DNA from: a bacterium
GTDB lineage: Bacteria > Patescibacteriota > Minisyncoccia > Phycocordibacterales > UBA6899
DNA: 64,000 nt
Reading direction: 5' to 3'
Assembly: GCA_043743715.1 (NCBI GenBank)
Contig: JAYTWK010000055.1
Span: forward strand, 10,242 to 74,241
Shown: piece after piece, positions 2,245 through 41,779 of the stretch
Layout of the letters: each line of letters starts with the position of its first letter
Position numbering within the stretch: position 1 is the stretch's first letter
Notes under the pieces: model-generated
What the model saw: the letters and a program-made list of their open reading frames with translations, nothing else
Database searches by the model: none
What the model was told of the DNA's origin: nothing
Translations under genes and position numbers: made by a program

Positions 2245-3761
2245 ACGTGTGAAGACAGAGATCGTTTCGCCTCTTTGACAAATTCATCCAAAAGACCAGG
2301 TAATTCTTTTGTATCCCCTTCTTCCCAGACACGGACATAGTCACACGCAAAGCTGGTATCATACGCTGCAGCAACAAAGTTCTCGAGTCTCCGTTCATAC
2401 TCCGGTGTATGCAAGTTTACCTTCAATAGCTCATTAATTTTTTCTCCCAAGGTTGTCATGTCGGTATGCTTTGTAACATTGGGGAGCTTGAGTGTTGTCC
2501 CAGAGTCACCCATTTGGATTGCAGGCTTATTGAGAAATGCTGCTTCCGCGATGGTACTACTATTGGGACTCACGACTAAGGCAGCACGATCAAGCACGTG
2601 TGCTGAAGGGATTCGGTAATCGATAAAAGCAACATTCACCGTTCGTGCAATTTTCTCGATATACGATGGTGGTCGCATGCCGACCATGGCTGGATGTTCT
2701 TTCACTACCAAGACATAGTCATCGGGTAATGACTGAGCAATGAGTCGCGCAACTTCAATTTGATTGTTAAAAAATGGCGAAGTGACATCAATACTCGCTT
2801 CGGGTTGTACTTGGAGTGGAAAATACACAAAATTTTTGATGGTATCAAATGCATCGTACGAAAAATGATCCATGAATTTTTGATATCGGTCAGCACAAAA
2901 ATGATCACGAAAAATGATACGTGGTGGCCGATAATCGGTAGTGATGCCGAGCCGCTTTACGTAATTTTTTTTCGGATCCATAACCCAACGCAAGCTCTGG
3001 TGGAATGGTGAAAGGATGTGGCGGATCTTTTTAATTAGAGGTCGGCTCTTTTTTAATTTTTGGAAAGGTGTTTCTATCTGTGCCCGCATTCCTCTGCGTA
3101 CTCCGGAAATATATGTTTTTGCCTTATGGCGATTGGCTGACTCAGCACTGCGGTCGAGTTCATCAATACGATCCCAGAAGGGTCCCGCATTATCTTGATA
3201 GCTGTGGGTAAATATCCAACTTCCCTTTATCTTATTGTCAGTAATGGCAAACATAGGCACACCATGGGCTTTGGCATAGAGGCTAAATACAATATGTGGA
3301 AAAGAAACAAAATTGGGAGCAATGATAAGGTCAGGCTTAAATTCGGTGAACATCTTTTTCGTGAGTGCATACATCGCAAGAATGTATTCAACGGTTTCCT
3401 TGTCTGAAACGTTTTGCTTAAAACCATAATAATACTTATCTTTATATGAACGCACGAAACTCCGAAGAGCCCCAACAATCGGCCAGATTGAAACAATCTT
3501 GAGTTCACGACAAACTTCAGTGAGATCGAGTGATGGATCGATATTGTAATCCAAAGGATGCTCGATGACATCGTCGTTACTTTCGATCATTTCGTAAACA
3601 ACCTCTTTCTGGCTACGAATAAACTTATCGCTCGATGGCTTGAAGGTAAGTGCAGCTAAATTGCACCCTTCGCTTTGAAGACGCTTGGCAAGTGGATGGC
3701 CTATTGCAATTGCCCAATTGCGCTGCTGAAAAATGAGAATGCGCTTTCCTGTGAGATTCAT
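2241..3761 (-). CDS. Capsule polysaccharide biosynthesis protein of the KpsC/KpsS/LpsZ (Capsule_synth) family, a putative beta-Kdo or nonulosonate transferase.
   Basis: 506 aa. VVKEHPAMVG... matches the K-x-HP motif region of the KpsC/KpsS family, and the overall length fits. It is translationally coupled to the kinase-fusion ORF. Confidence 0.4.
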   Translation of the reverse strand: MNLTGKRILIFQQRNWAIAIGHPLAKRLQSEGCNLAALTFKPSSDKFIRSQKEVVYEMIESNDDVIEHPLDYNIDPSLDLTEVCRELKIVSIWPIVGALRSFVRSYKDKYYYGFKQNVSDKETVEYILAMYALTKKMFTEFKPDLIIAPNFVSFPHIVFSLYAKAHGVPMFAITDNKIKGSWIFTHSYQDNAGPFWDRIDELDRSAESANRHKAKTYISGVRRGMRAQIETPFQKLKKSRPLIKKIRHILSPFHQSLRWVMDPKKNYVKRLGITTDYRPPRIIFRDHFCADRYQKFMDHFSYDAFDTIKNFVYFPLQVQPEASIDVTSPFFNNQIEVARLIAQSLPDDYVLVVKEHPAMVGMRPPSYIEKIARTVNVAFIDYRIPSAHVLDRAALVVSPNSSTIAEAAFLNKPAIQMGDSGTTLKLPNVTKHTDMTTLGEKINELLKVNLHTPEYERRLENFVAAAYDTSFACDYVRVWEEGDTKELPGLLDEFVKEAKRSLSSHV

Positions 3762-3828
3762 ATTCGACGAAATAAGGTAAGAAATAACATGAATAGTCTA
3801 TCATGATGGCCCCTCTTCGCAACGAGAA

Positions 3829-4602
3829 ATGTGGCTCACAATTGACCATGTTTTCGAGCTAGGCTATCATTCGACCATGATAACAAACGCTGAATTCGAT
3901 AAGTTGTATGAGGCACACGGCTTTGCATCTCAGCGCAAATACCCGAACGAACAACTTATTCAATTTCTCGCAGCAAACTTTTTTGCAATACCAAAAAATG
4001 AACGTGCGGAACACAAGATTCTTGAGCTTGGCTGTGGTAGTGGCGCGAATCTCTGGATGATTGCCAAAGAAGGTTTCGACGCACATGGAACTGATCACTC
4101 TCCTTCGGGCATAGAATTATGTAAACAACTTCTTGATTTCTATAGCGTTACAGCAAAACTTGCCGTTGGCGACTTCCGCAAGCTCGAATATCCCGACAAT
4201 TATTTTGACGCGATTGTTGACATTGTCTCACTTCAGCATACTGACCTACAAGGTCATATTGAGTCATATAAAGAGATCGTGCGATGCCTCAAACCTGGTG
4301 GTAAGTTTTTCTCTTGGCATCTCGGCGATAAAAGCATCTCTTTCCAAAGTCACAAGGGGATATTTCTTGATTCACAGACAATTGACAATATCGGCGTCGG
4401 CTTGCCACTTTCTGGAAATGGACCGACATGTTTCCTTAACCCTGAAATAGCCAAAAAATTGCTCTCGAACGCAGATTTCCAAGCAGTTGAGATAGAACTG
4501 GTAGTTCGAACCTACAGAGAAATGACGCAGTCTGTTGAATACCTTGCAATCTCAGCCACAAAATCTATTACTACTCCTGGACGGTTGAAGTCTCTTTCGT
4601 AG
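3829..4602 (+). CDS. Class I SAM-dependent methyltransferase.
   Basis: Motif I ILELGCGSGANLWMIA and an acidic residue after beta-2 (DAHGTD). Length is 257 aa. It is one of the few plus-strand genes. Confidence 0.7.
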   Translation: MWLTIDHVFELGYHSTMITNAEFDKLYEAHGFASQRKYPNEQLIQFLAANFFAIPKNERAEHKILELGCGSGANLWMIAKEGFDAHGTDHSPSGIELCKQLLDFYSVTAKLAVGDFRKLEYPDNYFDAIVDIVSLQHTDLQGHIESYKEIVRCLKPGGKFFSWHLGDKSISFQSHKGIFLDSQTIDNIGVGLPLSGNGPTCFLNPEIAKKLLSNADFQAVEIELVVRTYREMTQSVEYLAISATKSITTPGRLKSLS

Positions 4603-5803: not shown

Positions 5804-6056
5804 TATAGTGTACCCTCTGATAACAAAAAAACGGCTAAAAAGTTGTATGGGAGCTGCTTTTGCGGCGAACTCTGAGTGTGTCTAGTATACAGAGGACCAC
5901 ACGTATTTCAAATCACTAATACGCTATAACAAAACATAAGCAAAACGACGCAGCACACGAGTATTTCTACTATCGTATCATGACAAGGCAATCAGGATGC
6001 GGTGACTCACTCCATCCCTGGGCTGACGCCATGGGGTATTTGTGTGTGAATAAATA

Positions 6057-6515
6057 TCAAGATTTTAGGCGTGCTATTTTTCTACTGAGTCGATAGTAGA
6101 GCACATCATCTTGTTCTTTTTCAAGAACAAAGCCGACCGACTCTGCCATACTCATCGACGCCTTATTCTCACTCTTTACCTGTGCAGTAAGATTGCCTTC
6201 AAGTGTCTCACATGCCGCTCTCAGCATTGCTTTTCCTATGCCTTTGCCGCGCATAAGAGGGGCAACAGTCCATGAAATTTCATATGAACCGTCGGTATCT
6301 TTATCTGCACGAATAGTCCCTGCAGGAACTCCCTCATGTTCTGCAACAAAAAGAATGCGATCGGGATTCGTGATTACCCCGGCGAGCCATGTGAGGTGGT
6401 TTTCGAGAGGAACGATATCCGTATTGAATGATTGCCTGCGGGTCTCTGGATCATTGCGCCATGTGAGGAGTGCTGCCGCATCATCCATGGTTGCTTTACG
6501 TAAAGTGATCTGCAT
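6057..6515 (-). CDS. GNAT-family N-acetyltransferase, PseH-like candidate.
   Basis: 152 aa. N-terminal LTWRNDPETRR motif as in PseH/WecD-type sugar N-acetyltransferases. GNAT motif A region RGKGIGKAMLRAA. Confidence 0.6.
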   Translation of the reverse strand: MQITLRKATMDDAAALLTWRNDPETRRQSFNTDIVPLENHLTWLAGVITNPDRILFVAEHEGVPAGTIRADKDTDGSYEISWTVAPLMRGKGIGKAMLRAACETLEGNLTAQVKSENKASMSMAESVGFVLEKEQDDVLYYRLSRKIARLKS

Positions 6516-6524
6516 AATAATTTC

Positions 6525-7151
6525 TTATCTGAACTTATAAGTACCCTCTAAGATCTGTTGCCTTCCCTTCTCCTCGATTTCAGCAAGTTGCTTCATCCAA
6601 TCGCTCGCATATGCCGTTTCAATAACGTCACTCCAGAGTGAAGGATCGTTCTCGAGAAGCACGTCTTCCGCTGCGACGAACTCCACCTTTGCATGCTCGA
6701 TAAGTGAGGGAAATTTGAACTCAAGTATTGTCTGCGTGCGCGGTATATGCCAGCGATTGGTCACTACGGAAAATGTCTTCCCGGGATGTTCTTCAGTAAA
6801 TCTGCTGAGCTCGATGAATTCCTGATAAGTATTATTTGACTCCTCTTCGAGTATGATTTTTTCAAGAGGAACTCCGGCATCAGAAAGCTCATCGCGCAAT
6901 ATGTGAGCAAGAAGCGGTCGCGCTTCGGTCGTACCCGAGGGAACGCCATAACCTTTGCCTCCGCCGGTGAAGATCATTGTCTGTGAATGACGGGTTGCAA
7001 GCAATGCGCTTGCCAGGACGCGTAGCTTGCCGCCGGGTGCACCGAAACGCGTCATGTCTTCTCCTGACAGATCAGTACTGATCCATCTGCCTCTACTATC
7101 TTGCTTGATTCCCCCGCAAAGCAGGTGGATATAGTCAAAAGTATTATGCAT
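6525..7151 (-). CDS. DUF218/YdcF-ElyC-SanA-like protein.
   Basis: 208 aa. A central GGG motif (MIFTGGGKGYG) and an overall pattern like DUF218 envelope-biogenesis proteins. Weak call. Confidence 0.35.
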   Translation of the reverse strand: MHNTFDYIHLLCGGIKQDSRGRWISTDLSGEDMTRFGAPGGKLRVLASALLATRHSQTMIFTGGGKGYGVPSGTTEARPLLAHILRDELSDAGVPLEKIILEEESNNTYQEFIELSRFTEEHPGKTFSVVTNRWHIPRTQTILEFKFPSLIEHAKVEFVAAEDVLLENDPSLWSDVIETAYASDWMKQLAEIEEKGRQQILEGTYKFR

Positions 7152-32197: not shown

Positions 32198-33958
32198 TCA
32201 TTTCGGTTGAGTGGCGTAGATGTAGACACCACTCAAAATTGTCGCAGGAGAAATGTCCGACAACTCCTTGAGAACTGTACCTGTCAACTCAGTTGAGGAA
32301 AATATATAATCCACGCGATACTCCTTCAATTGGGTCTCAAGATCGCTTTTCAAAAATTCTTTATACTGGCGACTTACATCTTCCAAATGTCCTGTGAGCC
32401 ATGCATCTCTTGTGATACTAAATGCCTGTGTCCAATTCTCGGAATACATTGAGCGTACTTCCCCGTCATGAGTATCAAGAAACTTATCGATTCCCTCTGC
32501 GGTCACCCCATTCATGCGAAGACTAAGTAGGTAATTGTGGAGTAGTCGATCTTCGGGTATGCCATAAAATGCATAGCCCGAGGAGTAGACGTCGCATCGC
32601 GTATAAGCCGGGATGAGACGCTCGAGCGTTTTGTCGAAGTCGGTTACGAGTACGACACAATCTTTTTGAGGCAAGTGATTGAGAAATGCGAGCGCAGGAG
32701 CTGATTGTTGTAATTTTTTAAAATCTGAAATGCGATACATATAACTTCCTGCTGAGCTCACTCCTGAATACAGAGCAATGAGACTGATGAGTAGCACTCC
32801 ATATATCCATAACCGTGGAAAAAGATTTCTCCACACAAGATATGAGGTGGTGAAGAACATTATAAAACAGAACGGGATTGTGTACTGAACAAAATGATAC
32901 GGCCAAATTTCACGACCAGTGATCACTTGCTCATTAAATACCATCCATGATGCGAGCATAAGCGTGAAGATGAAAGACCAGGCATGCACATGTGGAGAAA
33001 AGATTTCTTTCTTTTTCTTGAATACATATGCGTAGAAAAAACTGAATACCACAAAGATTGAGGTCGCGATCAATAGTTTGTTCCACATTGGAGCATGAGT
33101 AAAAAACATACCATTGCGCCCTTCAAGCTTTCTTCCCGCCTCCCCTCCGAGCGCATGTAGAGTTTGATACCAATATGGTGCTTGGAGGAGGAGCGTGATG
33201 AAGAGTACTGAGAGAACCCGCTTTGCCTCTGTCCACTTTTTTTGAAATAAAAAGACTACGATGCATGCAGCAAGAAGTGAGAGCGAAATCGCAAGACTGA
33301 AGAAATAACCGACCGTACCTGCAGCAAGTATCCCCGCGAGCACAATATCGCTTTTGCGTCCTTTTTCTACGACATTCCAAAGAGAGACAAGCAAGCCAAA
33401 CACCAGTAAACTACCGGTAATAGGGTTCACCAACCGCGTCCAAAGTATCAAGTGTGTTGTATGAATGCTGCCCGAAAGAAGTCCTTTCAGGTAATGAATG
33501 TCTATCAGCTCCATCCCAAGCGTCACCATAAGTCCAATAGCAATGGCATTTGCAATAGCAGCATAACCTTCTCCTCCTGTGAGTTTTCGTATAAAAAGAT
33601 AGACTAGGAAAAACAGTAGCGCTGGAAATAAAAATTTACTCGCGATAATTACACAGGCAAGCCCGAAAACAAGCGCGGGTATCGCATAAAAATAATCTCC
33701 GATCGGATAGACAATCGCCGGTGAATCTTTGTACTCGTAGAGATGCGGAGAAGTTACCATTGGGTGTCCGTCGAGTACTTCGTGTATGAGTGAACGATAG
33801 GTCAGCTCGTCATCGATGTACAGAAATTCAAGACCCTTATAGCCCCCTCCGAGCGCAAGCGGTGCAAGGAATTGCGGAAGGACACAGAGTGTTCCGACAA
33901 CAATCGAACATGCAAGTGCGATCCCGTGCCGTGATACATATCTTCGCAATCGTTCCAT
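32198..33958 (-). CDS. Large polytopic membrane protein, GT-C-fold glycosyltransferase-like. Paralog of 39992-41779.
   Basis: 586 aa. More than 10 TM helices then a ~200-aa soluble C-terminal domain. The first extracytoplasmic loop carries FLYIDDELTYRSLIHEVLDGHP...YPIGDYFYAIP, alignable with the YIDD loop of the other large membrane protein. Confidence 0.4.
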   Translation of the reverse strand: MERLRRYVSRHGIALACSIVVGTLCVLPQFLAPLALGGGYKGLEFLYIDDELTYRSLIHEVLDGHPMVTSPHLYEYKDSPAIVYPIGDYFYAIPALVFGLACVIIASKFLFPALLFFLVYLFIRKLTGGEGYAAIANAIAIGLMVTLGMELIDIHYLKGLLSGSIHTTHLILWTRLVNPITGSLLVFGLLVSLWNVVEKGRKSDIVLAGILAAGTVGYFFSLAISLSLLAACIVVFLFQKKWTEAKRVLSVLFITLLLQAPYWYQTLHALGGEAGRKLEGRNGMFFTHAPMWNKLLIATSIFVVFSFFYAYVFKKKKEIFSPHVHAWSFIFTLMLASWMVFNEQVITGREIWPYHFVQYTIPFCFIMFFTTSYLVWRNLFPRLWIYGVLLISLIALYSGVSSAGSYMYRISDFKKLQQSAPALAFLNHLPQKDCVVLVTDFDKTLERLIPAYTRCDVYSSGYAFYGIPEDRLLHNYLLSLRMNGVTAEGIDKFLDTHDGEVRSMYSENWTQAFSITRDAWLTGHLEDVSRQYKEFLKSDLETQLKEYRVDYIFSSTELTGTVLKELSDISPATILSGVYIYATQPK

Positions 33959-35433: not shown

Positions 35434-35537
35434 AAGTTCACCTAGTGTATCAGCACGATTTGGCTAAAACAAGCCGAAAAAATATTAGACAAACGGTAGG
35501 ATTTTGCCCCGCGCATGCATTCTGATAGACTCTGAGA

Positions 35538-36263
35538 GTGAAAAGTGTCCATTATGAAACCCTCTACAGCCACGAAGTGAAGCACTGGTGGTATGCCGTC
35601 AGGCGCTGCTTGGTGCACAATCTCATTCGTACCTATACCAATGGGTCTGATCTCGCAATTCTCGACATCGGCTGCGGCACCGGGGCGCTTACCAAAGAAC
35701 TCGAACGCTACGGCACTGCGACTGGCATTGATTTCTCGCAGCAAGCGGTCGATTTTTGTAAGTCACGCGGGGTGAAGGACGTGCGCCTTGGCAGTGTGGA
35801 GGAGACAGGCTGTCCTCCCGATTCATTCGATGCGGTGCTTTGTCTTGATGTACTCGAACACCTGCCGGACGACGAGACCGGCATGACTGAGATCTATCGT
35901 GTACTCAAACCGGGCGGGACAGCGATTATCTTTGTACCGACATTCCAGTCACTATGGAGCGTGACCGATAATGTGAGTCAGCACTATCGACGCTATCGGC
36001 TACCGATACTCGTCGAGAAATTTGAGCGACTGGGTTTCACTACCCTACGCAGAAGTTACTTCAATACGTTTCTCTTCCCGCTCATTGCACTTGTACGCAT
36101 CAGCGTGAGACTACTTGGTATCAAAATGGAATCTGAGGCAGAGACCGGAGACGGCCTGGTCAATAAAATATTATTTGTGATATTCGATCTTGAACGCAGA
36201 TGTCTCAAATTTATGAACTTCCCATTCGGAGTTTCAGGAATGATTATTGCCAAAAAGAAATAG
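35538..36263 (+). CDS. Class I SAM-dependent methyltransferase.
   Basis: 241 aa. ILDIGCGTGALTKEL, GIDFSQQAV, LDVLEHLPDD. Confidence 0.7.
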   Translation: MKSVHYETLYSHEVKHWWYAVRRCLVHNLIRTYTNGSDLAILDIGCGTGALTKELERYGTATGIDFSQQAVDFCKSRGVKDVRLGSVEETGCPPDSFDAVLCLDVLEHLPDDETGMTEIYRVLKPGGTAIIFVPTFQSLWSVTDNVSQHYRRYRLPILVEKFERLGFTTLRRSYFNTFLFPLIALVRISVRLLGIKMESEAETGDGLVNKILFVIFDLERRCLKFMNFPFGVSGMIIAKKK

Positions 36264-36305
36264 GCAGGTTGCTCTTAACTCTGTCCCCCGTTTATTCTTT
36301 TCATC

Positions 36306-36343
36306 ATATTCGCTAATTTGTGCGATAGAACAAATTAGCGAAT
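36306..36343. promoter_or_regulatory. Palindromic operator-like site 1 (a possible bidirectional hairpin).
   Basis: TATTCGCTAATTTGT-gcgataga-ACAAATTAGCGAATA, a perfect 15-bp inverted repeat. It is near-identical to the site at 36997-37035. Confidence 0.5.
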
Positions 36344-36396
36344 ATGAGTTCAGATTTTATTTTGGGCACATTTCTTACGGAATTCGCATCATTCAC

Positions 36397-36888
36397 TCAG
36401 TCTTCCAAACGGAAGTGTCTCCTGAGCCATTTATCATTCTCAAGTGTATCGACGACCAAATACAACACTTCCTTCCCGATCTTAAAATCTGCCTTAAGTG
36501 TTGCGAGCAGACTTTCGCATGGATACGGATACACCCACACGCTTTTCTGAATTGGGGTGAAATCGAAATACTCAAGAGCATCTCGAAGCTCTCTGCGCAT
36601 GCGCTTTCTGTCTTCCTTGATATCGTAGATTACTACGCGCCACTTTCCATCCCAATGCTTTGGCTTTGTAATTTGACTCATTTCGTACTTCATGCGCGAG
36701 AGAGCATCCTCGCCCATTGTGGTGAGAGCAAGTACCTCATCACCCTTTCTCATTACAATTTTTATGTATCCCTTTTCAATGAGACGGCGCGTTCCGCGAG
36801 AGATATCATAACGCGGATTTGATTTTCGCGAACTACTCAAAGTAGCCCCGAAGTATTTTATAGCACTTGAAGTAATCTGCTCAAGCAC
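36397..36888 (-). CDS. PaaX-like family transcriptional regulator (short form: wHTH plus PaaX_C-like domain).
   Basis: 163 aa. The N-terminal winged-helix-like RRLIEKGYIKIVMRKGDEVLALTTMGEDAL and the C-terminal HWDGKWRVVIYDIKEDRKRMRRELRDALEYFDFTPIQKSVWVYPYP match the PaaX pattern (WdG.W..v.y..pe..R..R..l...L...GF..L..svWv.P). Confidence 0.5.
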   Translation of the reverse strand: MLEQITSSAIKYFGATLSSSRKSNPRYDISRGTRRLIEKGYIKIVMRKGDEVLALTTMGEDALSRMKYEMSQITKPKHWDGKWRVVIYDIKEDRKRMRRELRDALEYFDFTPIQKSVWVYPYPCESLLATLKADFKIGKEVLYLVVDTLENDKWLRRHFRLED

Positions 36889-36996
36889 AACGACTCCAGT
36901 TTGCGCAATGGTCTTTAGGATTATTCCCTGGATATCATTTGTTTCTGTTTGCCCCGTTTGTAATACAACATTTTTCGAATATAAAACGAGTCTATA

Positions 36997-37035
36997 TTAT
37001 TTGCTAATCTGTCCTATCGGACAAATTAGCAAATA
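36997..37035. promoter_or_regulatory. Palindromic operator-like site 2, upstream of the PaaX-like regulator gene.
   Basis: TATTTGCTAATCTGTCC-tatc-GGACAAATTAGCAAATA. It shares the core GCTAAT(T/C)TGT ... ACAAATTAGC with site 1. A T-run follows (GAGTTTTTTTATTTG). Confidence 0.5.
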
Positions 37036-37107
37036 ATATAGACGCTGAGTTTTTTTATTTGCGGACAGGGGTTCAGAAAACGAAAGAGGGCTATATTACA
37101 GGAAATC

Positions 37108-38976
37108 TTAATAACGCTTCCCCCACTCAAGTAGCGTCAGAAGATTCCAGAGTTTTTTACGGTGGTCACGTGCTCCCGACTGGTGTTCGTCCCATAAGTC
37201 GCGAACATAGATCGACGAGAATAATTCATTGCGCATCGGGTTCTCATCCAGCAGAAGTGACTCGGCCCACTGCTTGAGGGGCCCTCGCAGCCAGGCGCCC
37301 ACCGGAATACCGAAGCCTTTCTTTTTGCGATGTATGATATGGTTCGGAAGTTTACCTTCCATCAGCTTTTTGAGGAGGTACTTTCCGGTCATGCCATGCA
37401 ATTTCATTGCGTACGGGAGACGATTCACAAATTCAACCAGTTCATAGTCAAGAAACGGCGCGCGAGCCTCGAGACTGGCGAACATGCTCGCACGGTCCAC
37501 CTTCACCATCACCTGATCCATCATGTAGCTGCGCTGGTAGGCATACAGGAGCCTATTGTGGTCATCATGCGACTCGGACTCCTTGAAATAGCGTTTCGCT
37601 TCGCTGTATGGATCATTTTCTTTCAAATGCTCATGGATCGCCTTCGTGTACAATTGTGAACGGTCACTCGTGTTAAATGTCCCAAGCCAGCGCATGTGGC
37701 GGCCGACAATATCTTTCTCTCCAATTCCGTCGAGGTATTTTTCAAGTTTAAACTTCAGATTAAAGTTGGAGTATGAGGTTGGAAGCTTCTCGTGCAACTT
37801 ACGAGGAAGGCCTTCGCGGATAGCATGCGGAACATGCTGCAACATGGAGTACAAACGCTCGGCTTGAAATGTCGGATATCCTGCCAAAAGTTCGTCTCCA
37901 CCGTCGCCACCGAGTGCCACTGTGACGTGTTCTTTCGTATAGCGTGAGAGGAGGTAAGTAGGGATGATAGAGGCGTCCGCCATCGGTTCATCAAGAAGGA
38001 AGAACACCTGAGGGAGAGCGGCGAGCGAATCCTCACCGCTCAATATCTTGTGATGATGAATGCTCCTGATATGCGCGGCAACCTCTTTCGCATACATAGA
38101 TTCGTCGAAACTTTTTTCTTCAAAACCAATCGAGAATGTATGGATGGGTTCGTCTTTGAGTCTTGTCGCATAATACGCGACACTCGAGCTGTCGAGTCCG
38201 CCGGAGAGAAATATTCCGAGCGGGACATCGGATATCAAGCGACCTTCGATAGCAGAGACGAATTTTTCTTCAAAAGTGTGCGTCGCCTCTTCGAGCGAGA
38301 GGTCGAGGGAATCCCAAGCAGGATTCCAGAATTTTTTTATTTCAATCTTACCGTCGTGAAATGTGAGGTATGCCCCCGGCTCAAGCTTCTTGATCCCCTT
38401 GTAGATACTCATCGGTGTTGGGACATAGTCGAGTGCAAGATACGCATCGAGCGCGGTGTAATCGAGCGAGCGGGTTACCGACGGATGACAGAGCAACGTT
38501 TTGGGTTCCGAACCAAAGACAAGTGTGTCACCAAAGTGCCCGTAGTAGAGCGGCTTCTTCCCCATCCTATCGCGTGCAAGTAGCAGTTTTTTTGCCTTCT
38601 TGTCATACAGTGCAATACCAAACATGCCGGAGAGTTTTTCAAAACACGCCTCACCGTACTGCTCATACAGCGCAATGATAACTTCGGTGTCCGAGGTGCT
38701 CCGGAATTTGTATCCGTTTGATACGAGCTGCTTCTTGAGTTCACGATAATTGTATATCTCGCCATTGAACACGATACCGACTGAATTGCTTGCATTCCAC
38801 ATCGGCTGATGCCCTGAAGGTGTGAGGTCGAGGATAGCGAGTCTCCTGAATCCGAGACCGATTCCGCGTTCGAAGTATTTTCCCTCATCGTCGGGGCCGC
38901 GATAGCGGACGGTATCGACCATGAGCTCAAGGTCTGCAACCGTTCCCTTCCCGCTGAATCCTGCGATGCCACACAT
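37108..38976 (-). CDS. Asparagine synthetase B-family glutamine amidotransferase (WbpS/PseA-like sugar amidotransferase candidate).
   Basis: 622 aa. N-terminal MCGIAGF (Ntn Cys2) and the PP-loop SGGLDSS. Confidence 0.85.
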   Translation of the reverse strand: MCGIAGFSGKGTVADLELMVDTVRYRGPDDEGKYFERGIGLGFRRLAILDLTPSGHQPMWNASNSVGIVFNGEIYNYRELKKQLVSNGYKFRSTSDTEVIIALYEQYGEACFEKLSGMFGIALYDKKAKKLLLARDRMGKKPLYYGHFGDTLVFGSEPKTLLCHPSVTRSLDYTALDAYLALDYVPTPMSIYKGIKKLEPGAYLTFHDGKIEIKKFWNPAWDSLDLSLEEATHTFEEKFVSAIEGRLISDVPLGIFLSGGLDSSSVAYYATRLKDEPIHTFSIGFEEKSFDESMYAKEVAAHIRSIHHHKILSGEDSLAALPQVFFLLDEPMADASIIPTYLLSRYTKEHVTVALGGDGGDELLAGYPTFQAERLYSMLQHVPHAIREGLPRKLHEKLPTSYSNFNLKFKLEKYLDGIGEKDIVGRHMRWLGTFNTSDRSQLYTKAIHEHLKENDPYSEAKRYFKESESHDDHNRLLYAYQRSYMMDQVMVKVDRASMFASLEARAPFLDYELVEFVNRLPYAMKLHGMTGKYLLKKLMEGKLPNHIIHRKKKGFGIPVGAWLRGPLKQWAESLLLDENPMRNELFSSIYVRDLWDEHQSGARDHRKKLWNLLTLLEWGKRY

Positions 38977-38981
38977 ACTGG

Positions 38982-39950
38982 TTACAGCAAAGGCTGCTCA
39001 AGATTTATGGTCTTTTTGATAGCGTAGGGACGTTTACCTTGCGATTCGTAGTAAGTGCGCATCATCATCTCGGCGATGATACCCATGAGGAAGAACTGTG
39101 TACCGATGATGAGGAGTACTCCTGAAAGTGTCGGCAGTGGGGTCTGAATCAGATCTATCTTGAGTGCGAAGCGCAAAACGATTGCAGCGACAAGTATGAC
39201 AAAGGAGAAGAAGAACGACCAGAAGCCGGCATACGCAAAGAAATGCATTGGGCGGTTCATGAATTTCTCAAGGAATTTGAGAAGCAGGAGATCCGGCAAG
39301 ACACGCAGGACCCGGGAAAATCCATAATTACTCTTGCCATGGATACGCGGAGTGAACCTCACCTCGACTTCACCAATGCGCGCTCCGTGACGCTTTGCGT
39401 ATGCGGGAATAAAGCGGTGCATCTCACCGTAGAGGGTGATGTTCTTAATAATGTCTCTACGGTAACCCTTCAAGGTACAGCCAAAGTCATTGAGCTTCAC
39501 GCCGGTCACTTTTGAGATGAGTGAATTCGCGGCGAGTGACGGTATCTTTCGAGTGACGAATTCCCCTTTCCATCTATTCTTCCTCCAGCCGGACACAACG
39601 TCGTACCCCTCGTCCATCATGTCGACGATAGTTTTGATATCCTCGGGATCATTCTCTAAATCACTGTCGATAAGAATAACGATGTCACCAGAAGACACTT
39701 CGATGCCGGCGGCGATTGCGGCGGTCTGTCCGAAGTTATGTCTGAAATGGATGACTTTTATCCTGGAATCTTTTTGTGCTATTTCGGTAAGCGCGGCGAA
39801 GCTACTGTCCTTCGAACCGTCGTCAATACAAATAACCTCGTATGGGTTACCCATGCGCGTCAGCACGAGAGTCAAACGCTCATATAACAAAGGGATATTC
39901 AGGGCTTCGTTGTAGATAGGAACTACAATGGAGAGCGATTCATTAGTCAT
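38982..39950 (-). CDS. GT2 polyprenyl-phosphate sugar synthase (GtrB/ArnC/DPM1-like, with C-terminal TM helices).
   Basis: 322 aa. LSIVVPIYNEALNI, EVICIDDGSKDSS, DSDLENDPE (DxD). Two C-terminal hydrophobic helices. Confidence 0.8.
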   Translation of the reverse strand: MTNESLSIVVPIYNEALNIPLLYERLTLVLTRMGNPYEVICIDDGSKDSSFAALTEIAQKDSRIKVIHFRHNFGQTAAIAAGIEVSSGDIVILIDSDLENDPEDIKTIVDMMDEGYDVVSGWRKNRWKGEFVTRKIPSLAANSLISKVTGVKLNDFGCTLKGYRRDIIKNITLYGEMHRFIPAYAKRHGARIGEVEVRFTPRIHGKSNYGFSRVLRVLPDLLLLKFLEKFMNRPMHFFAYAGFWSFFFSFVILVAAIVLRFALKIDLIQTPLPTLSGVLLIIGTQFFLMGIIAEMMMRTYYESQGKRPYAIKKTINLEQPLL

Positions 39951-39991: not shown

Positions 39992-41779
39992 CTACTCTGG
40001 CAGTACCTTGTAGATGACGAAACGGCTATCTTCGTAGACTTTCGTAATGCTCGACAATTTTTCCGGATGAAATGCGGTGTCGAGTTCTTTGTCTTTCATA
40101 ATGTATGAGACATGGTATTTGACCACCATGCCCGGAAGGTTCTTCATGATTGTATCTTGATATGCTCGGTACATATCTACTGCCATGGGGGTATTCATGG
40201 TTACCGAATTTGTCAGTTCACCGCACACATAACCGAGCATGGAGAGATGGAAAATGCGACAAAGCTTCACTCCTCGATTATGGGTATTGGCGAGATGGTG
40301 CGCTTTTGAAACTCCGGCGAAGTTGCCCGAATCTTTTGCAATGCTCGAAACGGTTATCTGTGGCTCACTCAGTGTGTTCGCAAGGAGATATCGTTCTTTG
40401 AGTTCATCGTTGGACGCCAGCTGAAGGACACCAACACCACTGAAAAGGACATAGTGCTTTGTGTATATTGGAAGCGTACCACTAAGTGTCGAGTGGGGAT
40501 CTACCCATATTACTTGGGGTTCGCTTTCGGCAGCATCAAGCCACTTGTATGCCGGGATATACTCCTGAGCGCGGGTCATCGCCGCAATACGTTCTGCCGG
40601 ATGAAGGAATGTGCCAAGATCACCTGCATACGAAGCATTCCCCATAAGCACGATAAAAGAAAGTATGGCGAGCGTCGCCTTCTGCCTGAAGTGGAGGCGC
40701 AAAATCTGCGGTCTTGCTTTCATCAATTGATACACGAGCACGATGGTGCCGACGATAAGCCAGAGAATAATAAATCTACCGACATGCTGCGCAATCTCGA
40801 GTTCTTTGCCTGTAATGAGATTACTCAGCGACACGATGCTCATCGAGATACCGAGTGACACATAGAGTAGTACGAAGCGTCGATATATTGCATCATTACG
40901 CAGCACAGAAACCCAGTGCGAAGAAAAGAAGAGGCAGAGGCATAGCGCAATCACCCACAGTGCTGTTTGAAACGCGAGTGCGGTCGGAAGATGAGTATAT
41001 ACGAGTCCAGTTCGCTCCATAGTTTGCCAGTAGAACGGATGGTGTATCTGCTTGAGAGTAAATGAGATGAATGGTATGAGAAAAATCCCCGTCAGTGCCG
41101 AAGCTTTCGCGAGTGAAATAAAACGCATCCGTTCTTTTTTAAAGAGTGTAATGCAAAAAAGCAGCACCATCACTACACCGACTATCTGCCATAGGTATCC
41201 GTAGTCATAAAATGTTGCTGCGGCGGTCGCGGCAAGAAAAAGCACGCTGCTTTTCTTTGCCGGAGCTTTATCCCAAATAAATAGTGCGAGCACAAACAAT
41301 AAGTAGAACGGGAAAACTATCTGCATCGACACAGGCCTAAGAATGAGGAGATACACCTGCGTGAATGTAATGAGCGCACCGATTGTACTCCATCGCTTTG
41401 AGAGACCGAACATGGTGAGGCTGACATAGACCAAGAGTCCGAACACCAGTGACCAAAATGAGAAATCAATACTCATAGTGGCAAACAAAGGTAGTCCCAC
41501 GAGCATGGGAAGCGCGTACATCCAATCCGGAAAGACGAATGCAGGCGCAATATCTGCGCGATGTTCAATAAAATAGGGATTGCCGAGCCACGGATAACCG
41601 TCGACTACCTCCTTCATGCGTACATAATAATAATTATCGTCGATGTATGACGGTGGCACTCCTTGAAACTTGTCCCCAAGATAGTGCACTACCTCATACA
41701 CAGGAAGAAGCGACAAAAGAACTATTGCCGCCGCAAGCAGGGTGAGATACTTTTTATGTGTTTGGAAAAATTGACTCAT
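39992..41779 (-). CDS. Large polytopic membrane protein, GT-C-fold glycosyltransferase-like. Paralog of 32198-33958.
   Basis: 595 aa. More than 10 TM helices plus a C-terminal soluble domain. The first loop has PSYIDDNYYYVRMKEVVDGYPWLGNPYF...FPDWMYALP. Confidence 0.4.
   Translation of the reverse strand: MSQFFQTHKKYLTLLAAAIVLLSLLPVYEVVHYLGDKFQGVPPSYIDDNYYYVRMKEVVDGYPWLGNPYFIEHRADIAPAFVFPDWMYALPMLVGLPLFATMSIDFSFWSLVFGLLVYVSLTMFGLSKRWSTIGALITFTQVYLLILRPVSMQIVFPFYLLFVLALFIWDKAPAKKSSVLFLAATAAATFYDYGYLWQIVGVVMVLLFCITLFKKERMRFISLAKASALTGIFLIPFISFTLKQIHHPFYWQTMERTGLVYTHLPTALAFQTALWVIALCLCLFFSSHWVSVLRNDAIYRRFVLLYVSLGISMSIVSLSNLITGKELEIAQHVGRFIILWLIVGTIVLVYQLMKARPQILRLHFRQKATLAILSFIVLMGNASYAGDLGTFLHPAERIAAMTRAQEYIPAYKWLDAAESEPQVIWVDPHSTLSGTLPIYTKHYVLFSGVGVLQLASNDELKERYLLANTLSEPQITVSSIAKDSGNFAGVSKAHHLANTHNRGVKLCRIFHLSMLGYVCGELTNSVTMNTPMAVDMYRAYQDTIMKNLPGMVVKYHVSYIMKDKELDTAFHPEKLSSITKVYEDSRFVIYKVLPE

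Follow-up and report, generated by a model that had tools for sequence, protein, structure and literature searches.

The 64,000-nucleotide (nt) stretch of contig JAYTWK010000055.1 analysed here (the window) contains, on its minus strand, a small regulator gene that lies between asnB and a convergent methyltransferase gene and is flanked by two palindromes of closely similar sequence. The encoded protein, referred to below as mini-PaaX, combines a winged helix-turn-helix (wHTH) domain with a Cas2-like PaaX_M domain. Its homologues are approximately 190 amino acids (aa) long, begin with the sequence MLYYKRGKQKQNDIQG and come from Patescibacteria wherever their source is named. The family comprises 666 clusters at 50% identity (E-value ≤ 1e-30), and no member was found in 2.9 million viral contigs.

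The window protein matches the PaaX_M family (PF20803) with a score of 69.3 bits against a cutoff of 24 (E-value of 3.1e-19), and this domain is present in all homologues. A match to the Cas2 family (PF09827; E-value of 1.4e-5, 25.6 bits against a cutoff of 23.8) covers only positions 2–38 of the 74 in the profile, corresponding to the β1–α1 segment, and with a second Cas2 model (TIGR01573, cutoff of 24.5 bits) the window protein scores 22.6 bits and some relatives score 26–32 bits. Homologues are named inconsistently in databases, as 'CRISPR-associated endonuclease Cas2', 'DNA-binding transcriptional regulator PaaX', 'PadR family regulator' or hypothetical protein; the Cas2 name derives from the partial β1–α1 match, which in some members is barely above the cutoffs. 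An earlier, sequence-only reading of this DNA had described the product as a 163-aa wHTH protein with a PaaX_C-like part. The wHTH assignment holds, but the second domain is PaaX_M: PaaX_C gives no match in the protein at E-values up to 1, and the chain stops approximately 15 residues after the Cas2-like domain. The PaaX equivalog model (TIGR02277) scores 27.9 bits for the window protein and 33–54 bits for its relatives, against a cutoff of 264.55. The Pfam model of the PaaX N-terminal domain does not match the regulator, and no transposase, recombinase or HUH/Y1 domain is present among the Pfam, NCBIfam and PADLOC matches.

The AlphaFold model of an orthologue (P0003, 82% identical, pLDDT of 78) comprises a winged helix, with helices at residues 12–25, 30–45 and 53–67 and a β-wing, followed by a β-α-β-β-α-β domain. 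The top Foldseek match of this model in the Protein Data Bank (PDB) is Escherichia coli PaaX (entry 8A39, E-value of 2.8e-5), followed by assorted wHTH proteins, and a sequence search of the PDB returned weak PaaX-like matches only. The aspartate at the end of β1, at the position of the Cas2/VapD metal-binding residue, is invariant in 60 of 60 sequences as part of a Y/F-D-I motif, where E. coli PaaX has L-S-E. Invariant residues of the Cas2-like half include D117, Y148, C152, Y171 and E178. Overall, mini-PaaX is best placed with the PaaX-type wHTH/Cas2-like regulators.

In the window, the N-terminus of the homologues is encoded from an ATG at 36971. Alignment of the DNA with L001, an independent Logan assembly of the same organism, and with the loci L002 and L003 reveals a 1-nt deletion in the A-run at 36938–36940, which shifts the reading frame after codon 11 and is also present in L001. 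The intact open reading frame, on the minus strand at 36397–36888 with a GTG start at 36888, is the 163-aa remnant of a frameshifted gene of approximately 191 codons, and public gene calls begin at an internal TTG or GTG (147 or 163 aa). The 5′ frameshift may have inactivated the regulator gene in this genome; the gene may be a recent pseudogene, or translation may start at the internal GTG and yield a protein without helix 1.

Both palindromes lie where the sequence-only reading had put them, with site 2 upstream and site 1 in the gap that separates the 3′ end of the gene from the convergent methyltransferase gene, and they are longer than it had written. Site 1 has perfect 18-nt arms around an 8-nt spacer and is located 49 nt past the regulator stop codon. 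The arms of site 2 are 25 nt long and 96% complementary around a 4-nt loop, with the single mismatch forming a G·U pair on the minus strand. The two sites share the core GCTAAT(T/C)TGT-N8-ACAAATTAGC with identical N8 spacing, and this pattern, which bears out the claim of two near-identical palindromes, occurs twice in the window, at sites 1 and 2, and not at all in 100 dinucleotide-preserving shuffles. A search with 16-nt half-sites, allowing up to two mismatches, found no further copy in the 64 kb, and a search for a regulon found no third site there. Because the asymmetric spacer CGATAG is common to both sites, and the plus strand of site 1 is 87% identical to the minus strand of site 2 as against 82% to its plus strand, the two copies are mutually inverted. 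A weak direct repeat was also observed, with CTCTGTCCCCCGTTT at 36279–36293 and CTGTTTGCCCCGTTT at 36945–36959. The stretch just outside site 1 resembles regulator codons 5–9 and might derive from a past duplication of the 5′ end; such an extension has no consistent counterpart at other loci of the family.

Table 1 Coordinates of the mini-PaaX cassette and its features in the window
Feature	Position	Strand	Description
Whole cassette	36260..37108	none	Spacer, site 1, gene, promoter, site 2, spacer; delimited by blastn against L109
Site 1, downstream palindrome (second operator copy)	36304..36347	none	TCATATTCGCTAATTTGT-GCGATAGA-ACAAATTAGCGAATATGA
mini-PaaX gene (wHTH and Cas2-like PaaX_M)	36397..36971	−	Approximately 191 aa in relatives; frameshifted after codon 11
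Lys143 codon	36544..36546	−	191-aa numbering; Q-K-S in the Cas2-like β2–β3 turn; linked to the palindrome centre by covariation
Asp codon of Y-D-I	36622..36624	−	End of β1; position of the Cas2/VapD metal-binding Asp
Tyr codon (PRYDIS)	36808..36810	−	Immediately precedes the wHTH recognition helix; linked to arm base −17 by covariation
Frameshift site	36938..36941	−	A-run one A short relative to orthologues (CAAAAT to CAAAT)
−10 hexamer TATATT	36978..36983	−	6 nt before ATG; promoter scan
Site 2, upstream palindrome (promoter operator)	36990..37043	none	GTCTATATTATTTGCTAATCTGTCC-TATC-GGACAAATTAGCAAATAATATAGAC
−35-like hexamer TTAGCA	37002..37007	−	Within the gene-proximal arm of site 2

The arrangement TTAGCA-18-TATATT-6/7-ATG is common to the window, L002 and L003, with diverged sequence between the hexamers, and a promoter scan picks the same TTAGCA/TATATT pair; L107 has, for comparison, TTGGCA-16-TATAAT. 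Since the −10 hexamer ends so close to the ATG, the mRNA is apparently leaderless. The right arm of site 2 contains the −35 element of the gene's own promoter, a geometry that fits the autoregulation predicted by the sequence-only reading. At site 1, the scan found no sigma-70-like promoter, and no T-run follows the palindrome on the strand of the regulator gene.

The site 2 palindrome is retained at the same position in the orthologous loci L002 (82% protein identity) and L003/L004 (75%), where it differs by a compensatory change from T-A to C-G, a flipped central tetranucleotide and one A·A mismatch. The motif is kept, in line with the sequence-only reading, at these orthologous loci. The downstream copy is absent at L002, which has a different neighbourhood downstream of the regulator, with HTH_3 and sigma-70 genes and no second palindrome; an inversion between palindromes was rejected as the source of this arrangement, since the gene orientations do not fit. 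The asymmetric centre (GATA or TATC; gt or ac) flips between close relatives and between the copies within one locus, and palindromy often extends beyond the part common to both copies, as in site 2 of the window and in the downstream copy of L107, which has a GC-rich clamp. These features suggest template-switch 'quasi-palindrome correction' or cruciform-related turnover.

The architecture recurs across the family, for which we sampled 19 loci from species-representative genomes, 80 metagenomic loci out of at least 594 matches, and five more via four closer relatives. In 47 of 85 Patescibacteria loci, an exact match of 12 nt or more is common to the upstream and downstream flanks of the gene; among permuted pairs, this holds for 12 of 300 (4%). 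A palindrome with at least 11 matched arm bases is present in 53% of the upstream flanks and in 52% of the downstream ones; the corresponding frequency is 5% for distant segments from these loci and 3% for shuffles. The copies are matched within a locus and differ between loci; two paralogues within one metagenome-assembled genome (MAG), 54% identical to each other, each possess a different matched palindrome pair. Similarity between the upstream and downstream copies is limited to approximately ±19 bp about the dyad. When half-sites are aligned on the centre, C occupies position −3 in 174 of 190, followed by K at −2 and R at −1, and positions −11 and −12 are A/T-rich; the arms are otherwise variable and locus-specific. 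The centres of the window sites, GCGA|TAGA and CCTA|TCGG, fit the resulting family centre C-K-R|Y-M-G. Third copies within ±2.5 kb are rare among these partial genomes. At L104, two copies precede the ATG, at distances of 26 and 216 nt, and one lies downstream of the gene (at approximately 1770–1805, 1960–1996 and 2655–2700), and L056 has an extra copy at 1443–1478, 1 kb upstream and ahead of a neighbouring gene.

Spacings between dyad and start codon peak sharply at 45–46 nt (13 of 57), which is also the distance of the site 2 centre from the ATG in the window. In this class, TATAAT-like hexamers lie 6–8 nt before the ATG, and an outer arm motif (TTAGCA, TTGGCA or TTAGGT) constitutes the −35 element. 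The distances as a whole cluster at 17–19, 26–29, 35–38, 45–46 and 56–59 nt, approximately one helical turn apart, although some of this clustering may stem from mis-called start codons.

For the downstream copy, three origins or functions were rejected. It is unlikely to act as a terminator, as the sequence-only reading had suggested for site 1, because downstream copies across the family are AT-rich (arms of 32% GC) and lack T-runs, with at least six T in the next 10 nt in only 1 of 40. A role as promoter operator of the next gene finds no support in the distances to that gene, which range from 19 to 247 nt without a peak. Nor does the copy look like what a tandem duplication of the 5′ region would leave behind, the similarity being confined to approximately ±19 nt with no consistent extension.

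The stability of the hairpins raises an alternative at the RNA level, in which transcribed hairpins act as bidirectional terminators, as insulators from the co-directional glycan operon or as stabilizers of mRNA ends, and the similarity between the copies is incidental or due to gene conversion. We regard this as very unlikely. The predicted folding energies are indeed large (−24.6 to −38.8 kcal/mol, z-scores of −5 to −11), the palindromy of site 2 and of the L107 downstream copy continues past the shared core, and site 2, on the minus strand just after asnB, passes a simple, lax terminator scan, which site 1 fails. However, with the predicted promoter located within site 2 or downstream of it, the upstream hairpin would not be part of the gene's own mRNA, the downstream copies have the low GC content and the dearth of T-runs described above, and no RNA family in Rfam matches the window at gathering thresholds. 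Across loci, moreover, the asymmetric centres of the two copies show no constant relative orientation.

A link between protein and palindromes is provided by covariation. Residue 143 (profile position 147) is the variable position of an otherwise invariant L-Q-x-S-V-W-V-Y-P-Y motif in the Cas2-like domain, and its class follows the base at −2 of the palindrome centre: acidic residues occur with T at 17 loci and with G at three, and non-acidic residues (N, H, K, Q or R) with G at 29 loci and with T at none (Fisher's exact test, 1.8e-10). Because the residue class switches at least 11 times by parsimony on a neighbour-joining tree, this covariation does not stem from one clade. The chemistry suggested by the pairing is sensible, with hydrogen-bond donors facing guanine and a carboxylate facing the amino group of the adenine paired with T. 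A second covariation, partly clade-structured, links the residue just before the wHTH recognition helix to arm base −17 (Tyr with T at 14 loci and with A at one; Glu with A at 11 and with T at none; 1.6e-6). The window protein has Lys at the first position and Tyr at the second; the centres of its sites are mixed (CG/CT), and T occupies −17 in both. Mean pairwise identity is 34% in the wHTH and 60% in the Cas2-like half, with a hypervariable recognition helix, and similarity of the palindrome arms follows identity of the wHTH (partial ρ of 0.21) and not that of the Cas2-like domain (0.04). As residues of both domains co-vary with DNA bases, these data support the palindromes being cognate sites read by both domains of the encoded protein, with the Cas2-like core of a dimer predicted to contact the dyad and the winged helices the outer arms. 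Such covariation would not be expected of hairpins that function independently of the protein.

Comparison with related genomes delimits the unit to which gene and palindromes belong. The MAG that contains L109 (asnB 86% identical) has the same gene order as the window: GT1, a methyltransferase, a 594-aa membrane protein, GT2, asnB, the convergent methyltransferase, two more methyltransferases and a 589-aa membrane protein. In blastn alignments, positions 38977..37109 of the window correspond to 4000..5868 of L109, and 36259..35434 to 5873..6688. The 849 nt between these blocks (breakpoints at 37108/37109 and 36259/36260) have no counterpart in L109, where the stop codons of asnB and the methyltransferase gene overlap (CTAG), and both regulator and palindrome are absent; the lack of any hairpin between these convergent stops also speaks against the RNA-level alternative. 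Because the breakpoints enclose the gene and both palindromes, the block was gained or lost as a unit. In L002 and L110 (asnB of L110 92% identical), the module lies beyond a 113–200-nt 3′ fragment of the methyltransferase gene that abuts asnB, an arrangement that would fit, speculatively, homology-facilitated or Campbell-type acquisition. The fragment spans 575–790 in L002, where it includes a tandem duplication of approximately 65 nt, and 4746–4880 in L110.

The gene neighbourhood varies between loci. At approximately 70 loci per side, the neighbours belong to approximately 95 Pfam families each and are unrelated housekeeping genes in mixed orientation, including gyrase, aminoacyl-tRNA synthetases, ribosomal proteins, release factor and RNase III. 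In the window, the neighbours encode glycosyltransferases, methyltransferases, AsnB and an ABC exporter, that is, a glycan/envelope island. The comparison of neighbourhoods proposed with the sequence-only reading shows palindromes kept at orthologous loci but no association with glycan genes, and the control of adjacent glycan genes by site 1 that it had envisaged is not supported, in view of the absence of a third site in 64 kb, the unrelated neighbours elsewhere and the same glycan cluster in a related genome without the cassette. By these comparisons, the cassette appears to behave as a gain-or-lose unit and not as a regulator of the neighbouring sugar-coat genes.

Other features of the island were noted in passing. 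Two paralogue-like multi-pass membrane proteins of approximately 590 aa (32198–33958 and 39992–41779, minus strand) have no Pfam match, and each of their genes is followed by methyltransferase genes; the cluster contains at least six class-I S-adenosylmethionine-dependent methyltransferase genes, nearly all on the minus strand. In L109, an extra gene at 3565–3945, encoding a 126-aa 23S_rRNA_IVP/bAvd-like protein, lies between GT2 and asnB, a gap that in the window is 5 nt (38976–38982). It seems that small genes standing on their own are gained and lost in the spaces between the genes of the glycan cluster. ARAGORN detected no tRNA or tmRNA in the window, and TRF no tandem or CRISPR-like repeat arrays in its 64 kb.

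These results leave little of the functional proposal in the sequence-only reading, a PaaX-type repressor that senses CoA thioesters and whose site 1 controls or terminates glycan genes. Its points of support are the PaaX_M domain, the nearest solved fold being that of PaaX, and the location within a glycan/envelope island. The suggested tie to CoA thioesters and to an acyl-CoA module has no basis, because the protein lacks PaaX_C, the part to which a review of the paa pathway assigns the binding of phenylacetyl-CoA (PMC9493321). In addition to this and to the TIGR02277 score, no paa genes are present near the regulator in the window or in the top families of 142 neighbour genes elsewhere, the window has no further sites, the downstream copy is not placed in the family as an operator of the next promoter, and an orthologous glycan cluster exists without the cassette. 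The proposal is largely refuted by domain content and comparative genomics, and we consider it extremely unlikely.

The gain and loss of the cassette could also be that of a selfish or mobile element, with the palindromes as substrates that the Cas2-like domain would cut, resolve or recombine, or of a fused addiction module resembling a toxin–antitoxin pair; a module of either kind would explain its cassette-like behaviour. Possible analogues are the IS200/IS605 TnpA acting on flanking hairpins and the telomere resolvases acting on palindromic junctions. We think this unlikely, although several observations are compatible with it. The module is cleanly present or absent as 849 nt between related genomes, in L002 and L110 a 3′ methyltransferase fragment separates it from asnB, its neighbours are unrelated across loci, paralogues occur within one MAG, and most pairs of regulators that are 55–72% identical are non-syntenic. 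The Cas2-like half is the strongly conserved one, retains the Cas2/VapD metal-binding aspartate together with several invariant tyrosine, glutamate and aspartate residues, and matches Cas2 hidden Markov models (HMMs) over β1–α1; the central asymmetry, moreover, is flipped between close relatives. Against this, the indel ends 40 and 64 nt outside the palindromes, which are consequently not terminal repeats, and no target-site duplication was apparent. Both flanks are retained between regulators that are at least 73% identical, a single regulator gene occurs at each locus and in each 64-kb window, identical multi-copies being absent, no transposase or recombinase domain is present, and the family is missing from the viral contigs. 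Slightly less probable again is the specific form of this idea in which the family would represent a new class of minimal selfish cassette in Patescibacteria, with a Cas2-like dimer that would be seated on the dyad, read the palindromes and also process them by cleavage, hairpin or cruciform resolution or recombination, thereby driving excision, gain and loss, or addiction. Were it correct, the family would bridge, as a living intermediate, the Cas2/VapD nucleases and the PaaX-type repressors.

The reading that we favour is that the locus is probably a self-contained, accessory cassette of approximately 850 bp, in which an autoregulated, ligand-less mini-PaaX is encoded between paired cognate operators. 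By analogy with PaaX, mini-PaaX would act as a dimer and bind two palindromic operators of approximately 38–40 bp, one on each side of its own gene. The winged helices would read the locus-specific outer arms (GCTAAT at −15 to −10, and out to approximately −19), and the β2–β3 turns of the Cas2-like dimer would read the conserved centre C-K-R|Y-M-G at the dyad. Because site 2 covers the −35 element of a promoter whose −10 element lies 6 nt before the ATG, its occupancy should shut off the gene's own transcription. Site 1 would most likely be a second, cooperative site; it could act by looping across approximately 690 bp or as a protein-bound obstacle to transcription arriving from the convergent methyltransferase gene. 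That the protein binds these sites, that it then represses, how the dimer is arranged on the DNA and that a loop forms are predictions from sequence and models, and so is any effect on the cell.

Several observations weigh against this autoregulatory cassette. The downstream copy is missing in L002 and undetected in approximately half of the family loci, and so is not essential; between the two copies there is no helical phasing (Rayleigh R of 0.12). Symmetry of the arms extends over far more positions than a dimer would be expected to touch, and at site 2 of the window and at L107 the palindromy outreaches the shared part, which may reflect quasi-palindrome correction or a role as hairpin or cruciform. 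A site centred at −45 could in principle activate instead of repress, a regulator with detectable sites only beside its own gene has no obvious output, and in the genome of the window the regulator gene is frameshifted.

Among known systems, PaaX (PDB entry 8A39; TIGR02277; COG3327) is the closest to mini-PaaX, sharing the N-terminal winged helix, followed by a Cas2-like domain with a WDGKW motif, and autoregulation, which for mini-PaaX is predicted. The E. coli PaaX operator, TGATTC-N27-GAATCA (PMC9493321), is an inverted repeat of approximately 39 bp, similar in size to the unit described here. Unlike PaaX, mini-PaaX has no C-terminal helical ligand domain (191 compared with 316 aa), scores far under the equivalog cutoff and lacks paa genes nearby. 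Its operators bracket its own gene and are palindromic throughout, with a conserved centre that is apparently read by the Cas2-like domain, and among the recovered loci it is limited to Patescibacteria.

With Cas2 and VapD, mini-PaaX shares the ferredoxin-like β-α-β-β-α-β fold, the HMM matches over β1–α1 and the invariant aspartate at the end of β1, and several family members carry the name 'Cas2' at NCBI or JGI. However, only half of the Cas2 profile is matched, the domain is fused to a wHTH and appears to read DNA sequence at the dyad, no cas1, CRISPR array or other cas genes lie near mini-PaaX, and cas families are absent from the top neighbour families of the other loci.

The TnpA protein of IS200/IS605 elements has an RRM/ferredoxin-like fold. 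These elements and REP-RAYT systems resemble the cassette in having a small protein whose gene is bracketed by two similar palindromes and in presence/absence polymorphism. In contrast to them, mini-PaaX has neither HUH/Y1 motifs nor the corresponding Pfam match, its palindromes are near-perfect with no fixed strand orientation, the indel of the cassette ends away from the palindromes, and there are no identical multi-copy elements but a stable synteny among close relatives. The lambda CI (OL/OR), LacI, GalR and DeoR systems with auxiliary operators likewise place a repressor gene between or beside two operator sets, one overlapping the promoter and a distal one assumed to loop. Their folds are unrelated to that of mini-PaaX, which has a single palindrome of approximately 40 bp per side (occasionally two upstream, as in L104) and no other regulated genes in evidence.

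A literature search found no paper that joins PaaX with Cas2 or a Cas2-like domain and, among the papers listed on Patescibacteria or the candidate phyla radiation, none that mentions PaaX, and neither the family-level architecture nor a DNA-reading role of the Cas2-like domain was found in the searchable literature. For the window itself, the proposed link of the regulator to glycan and acyl-CoA genes is removed, and the gene is flagged as probably inactivated. For the family, which is large and little characterized (at least 666 clusters and at least 594 metagenomic loci) and has been labelled variously 'Cas2', 'PaaX' and 'PadR', the results give a first functional sketch, with a defined operator architecture and promoter geometry and with two testable specificity determinants, one in the wHTH and one, unexpectedly, in the Cas2-like domain. 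A review of PaaX describes the Cas2-like domain only as a dimerization motif (PMC9493321); the present results suggest how PaaX-type dimers may span operators of approximately 40 bp and point to a DNA-reading role for the Cas2 fold. They also pose a puzzle, in that genome-reduced Patescibacteria keep and exchange several ligand-less regulators whose detectable targets are only the flanks of their own genes.

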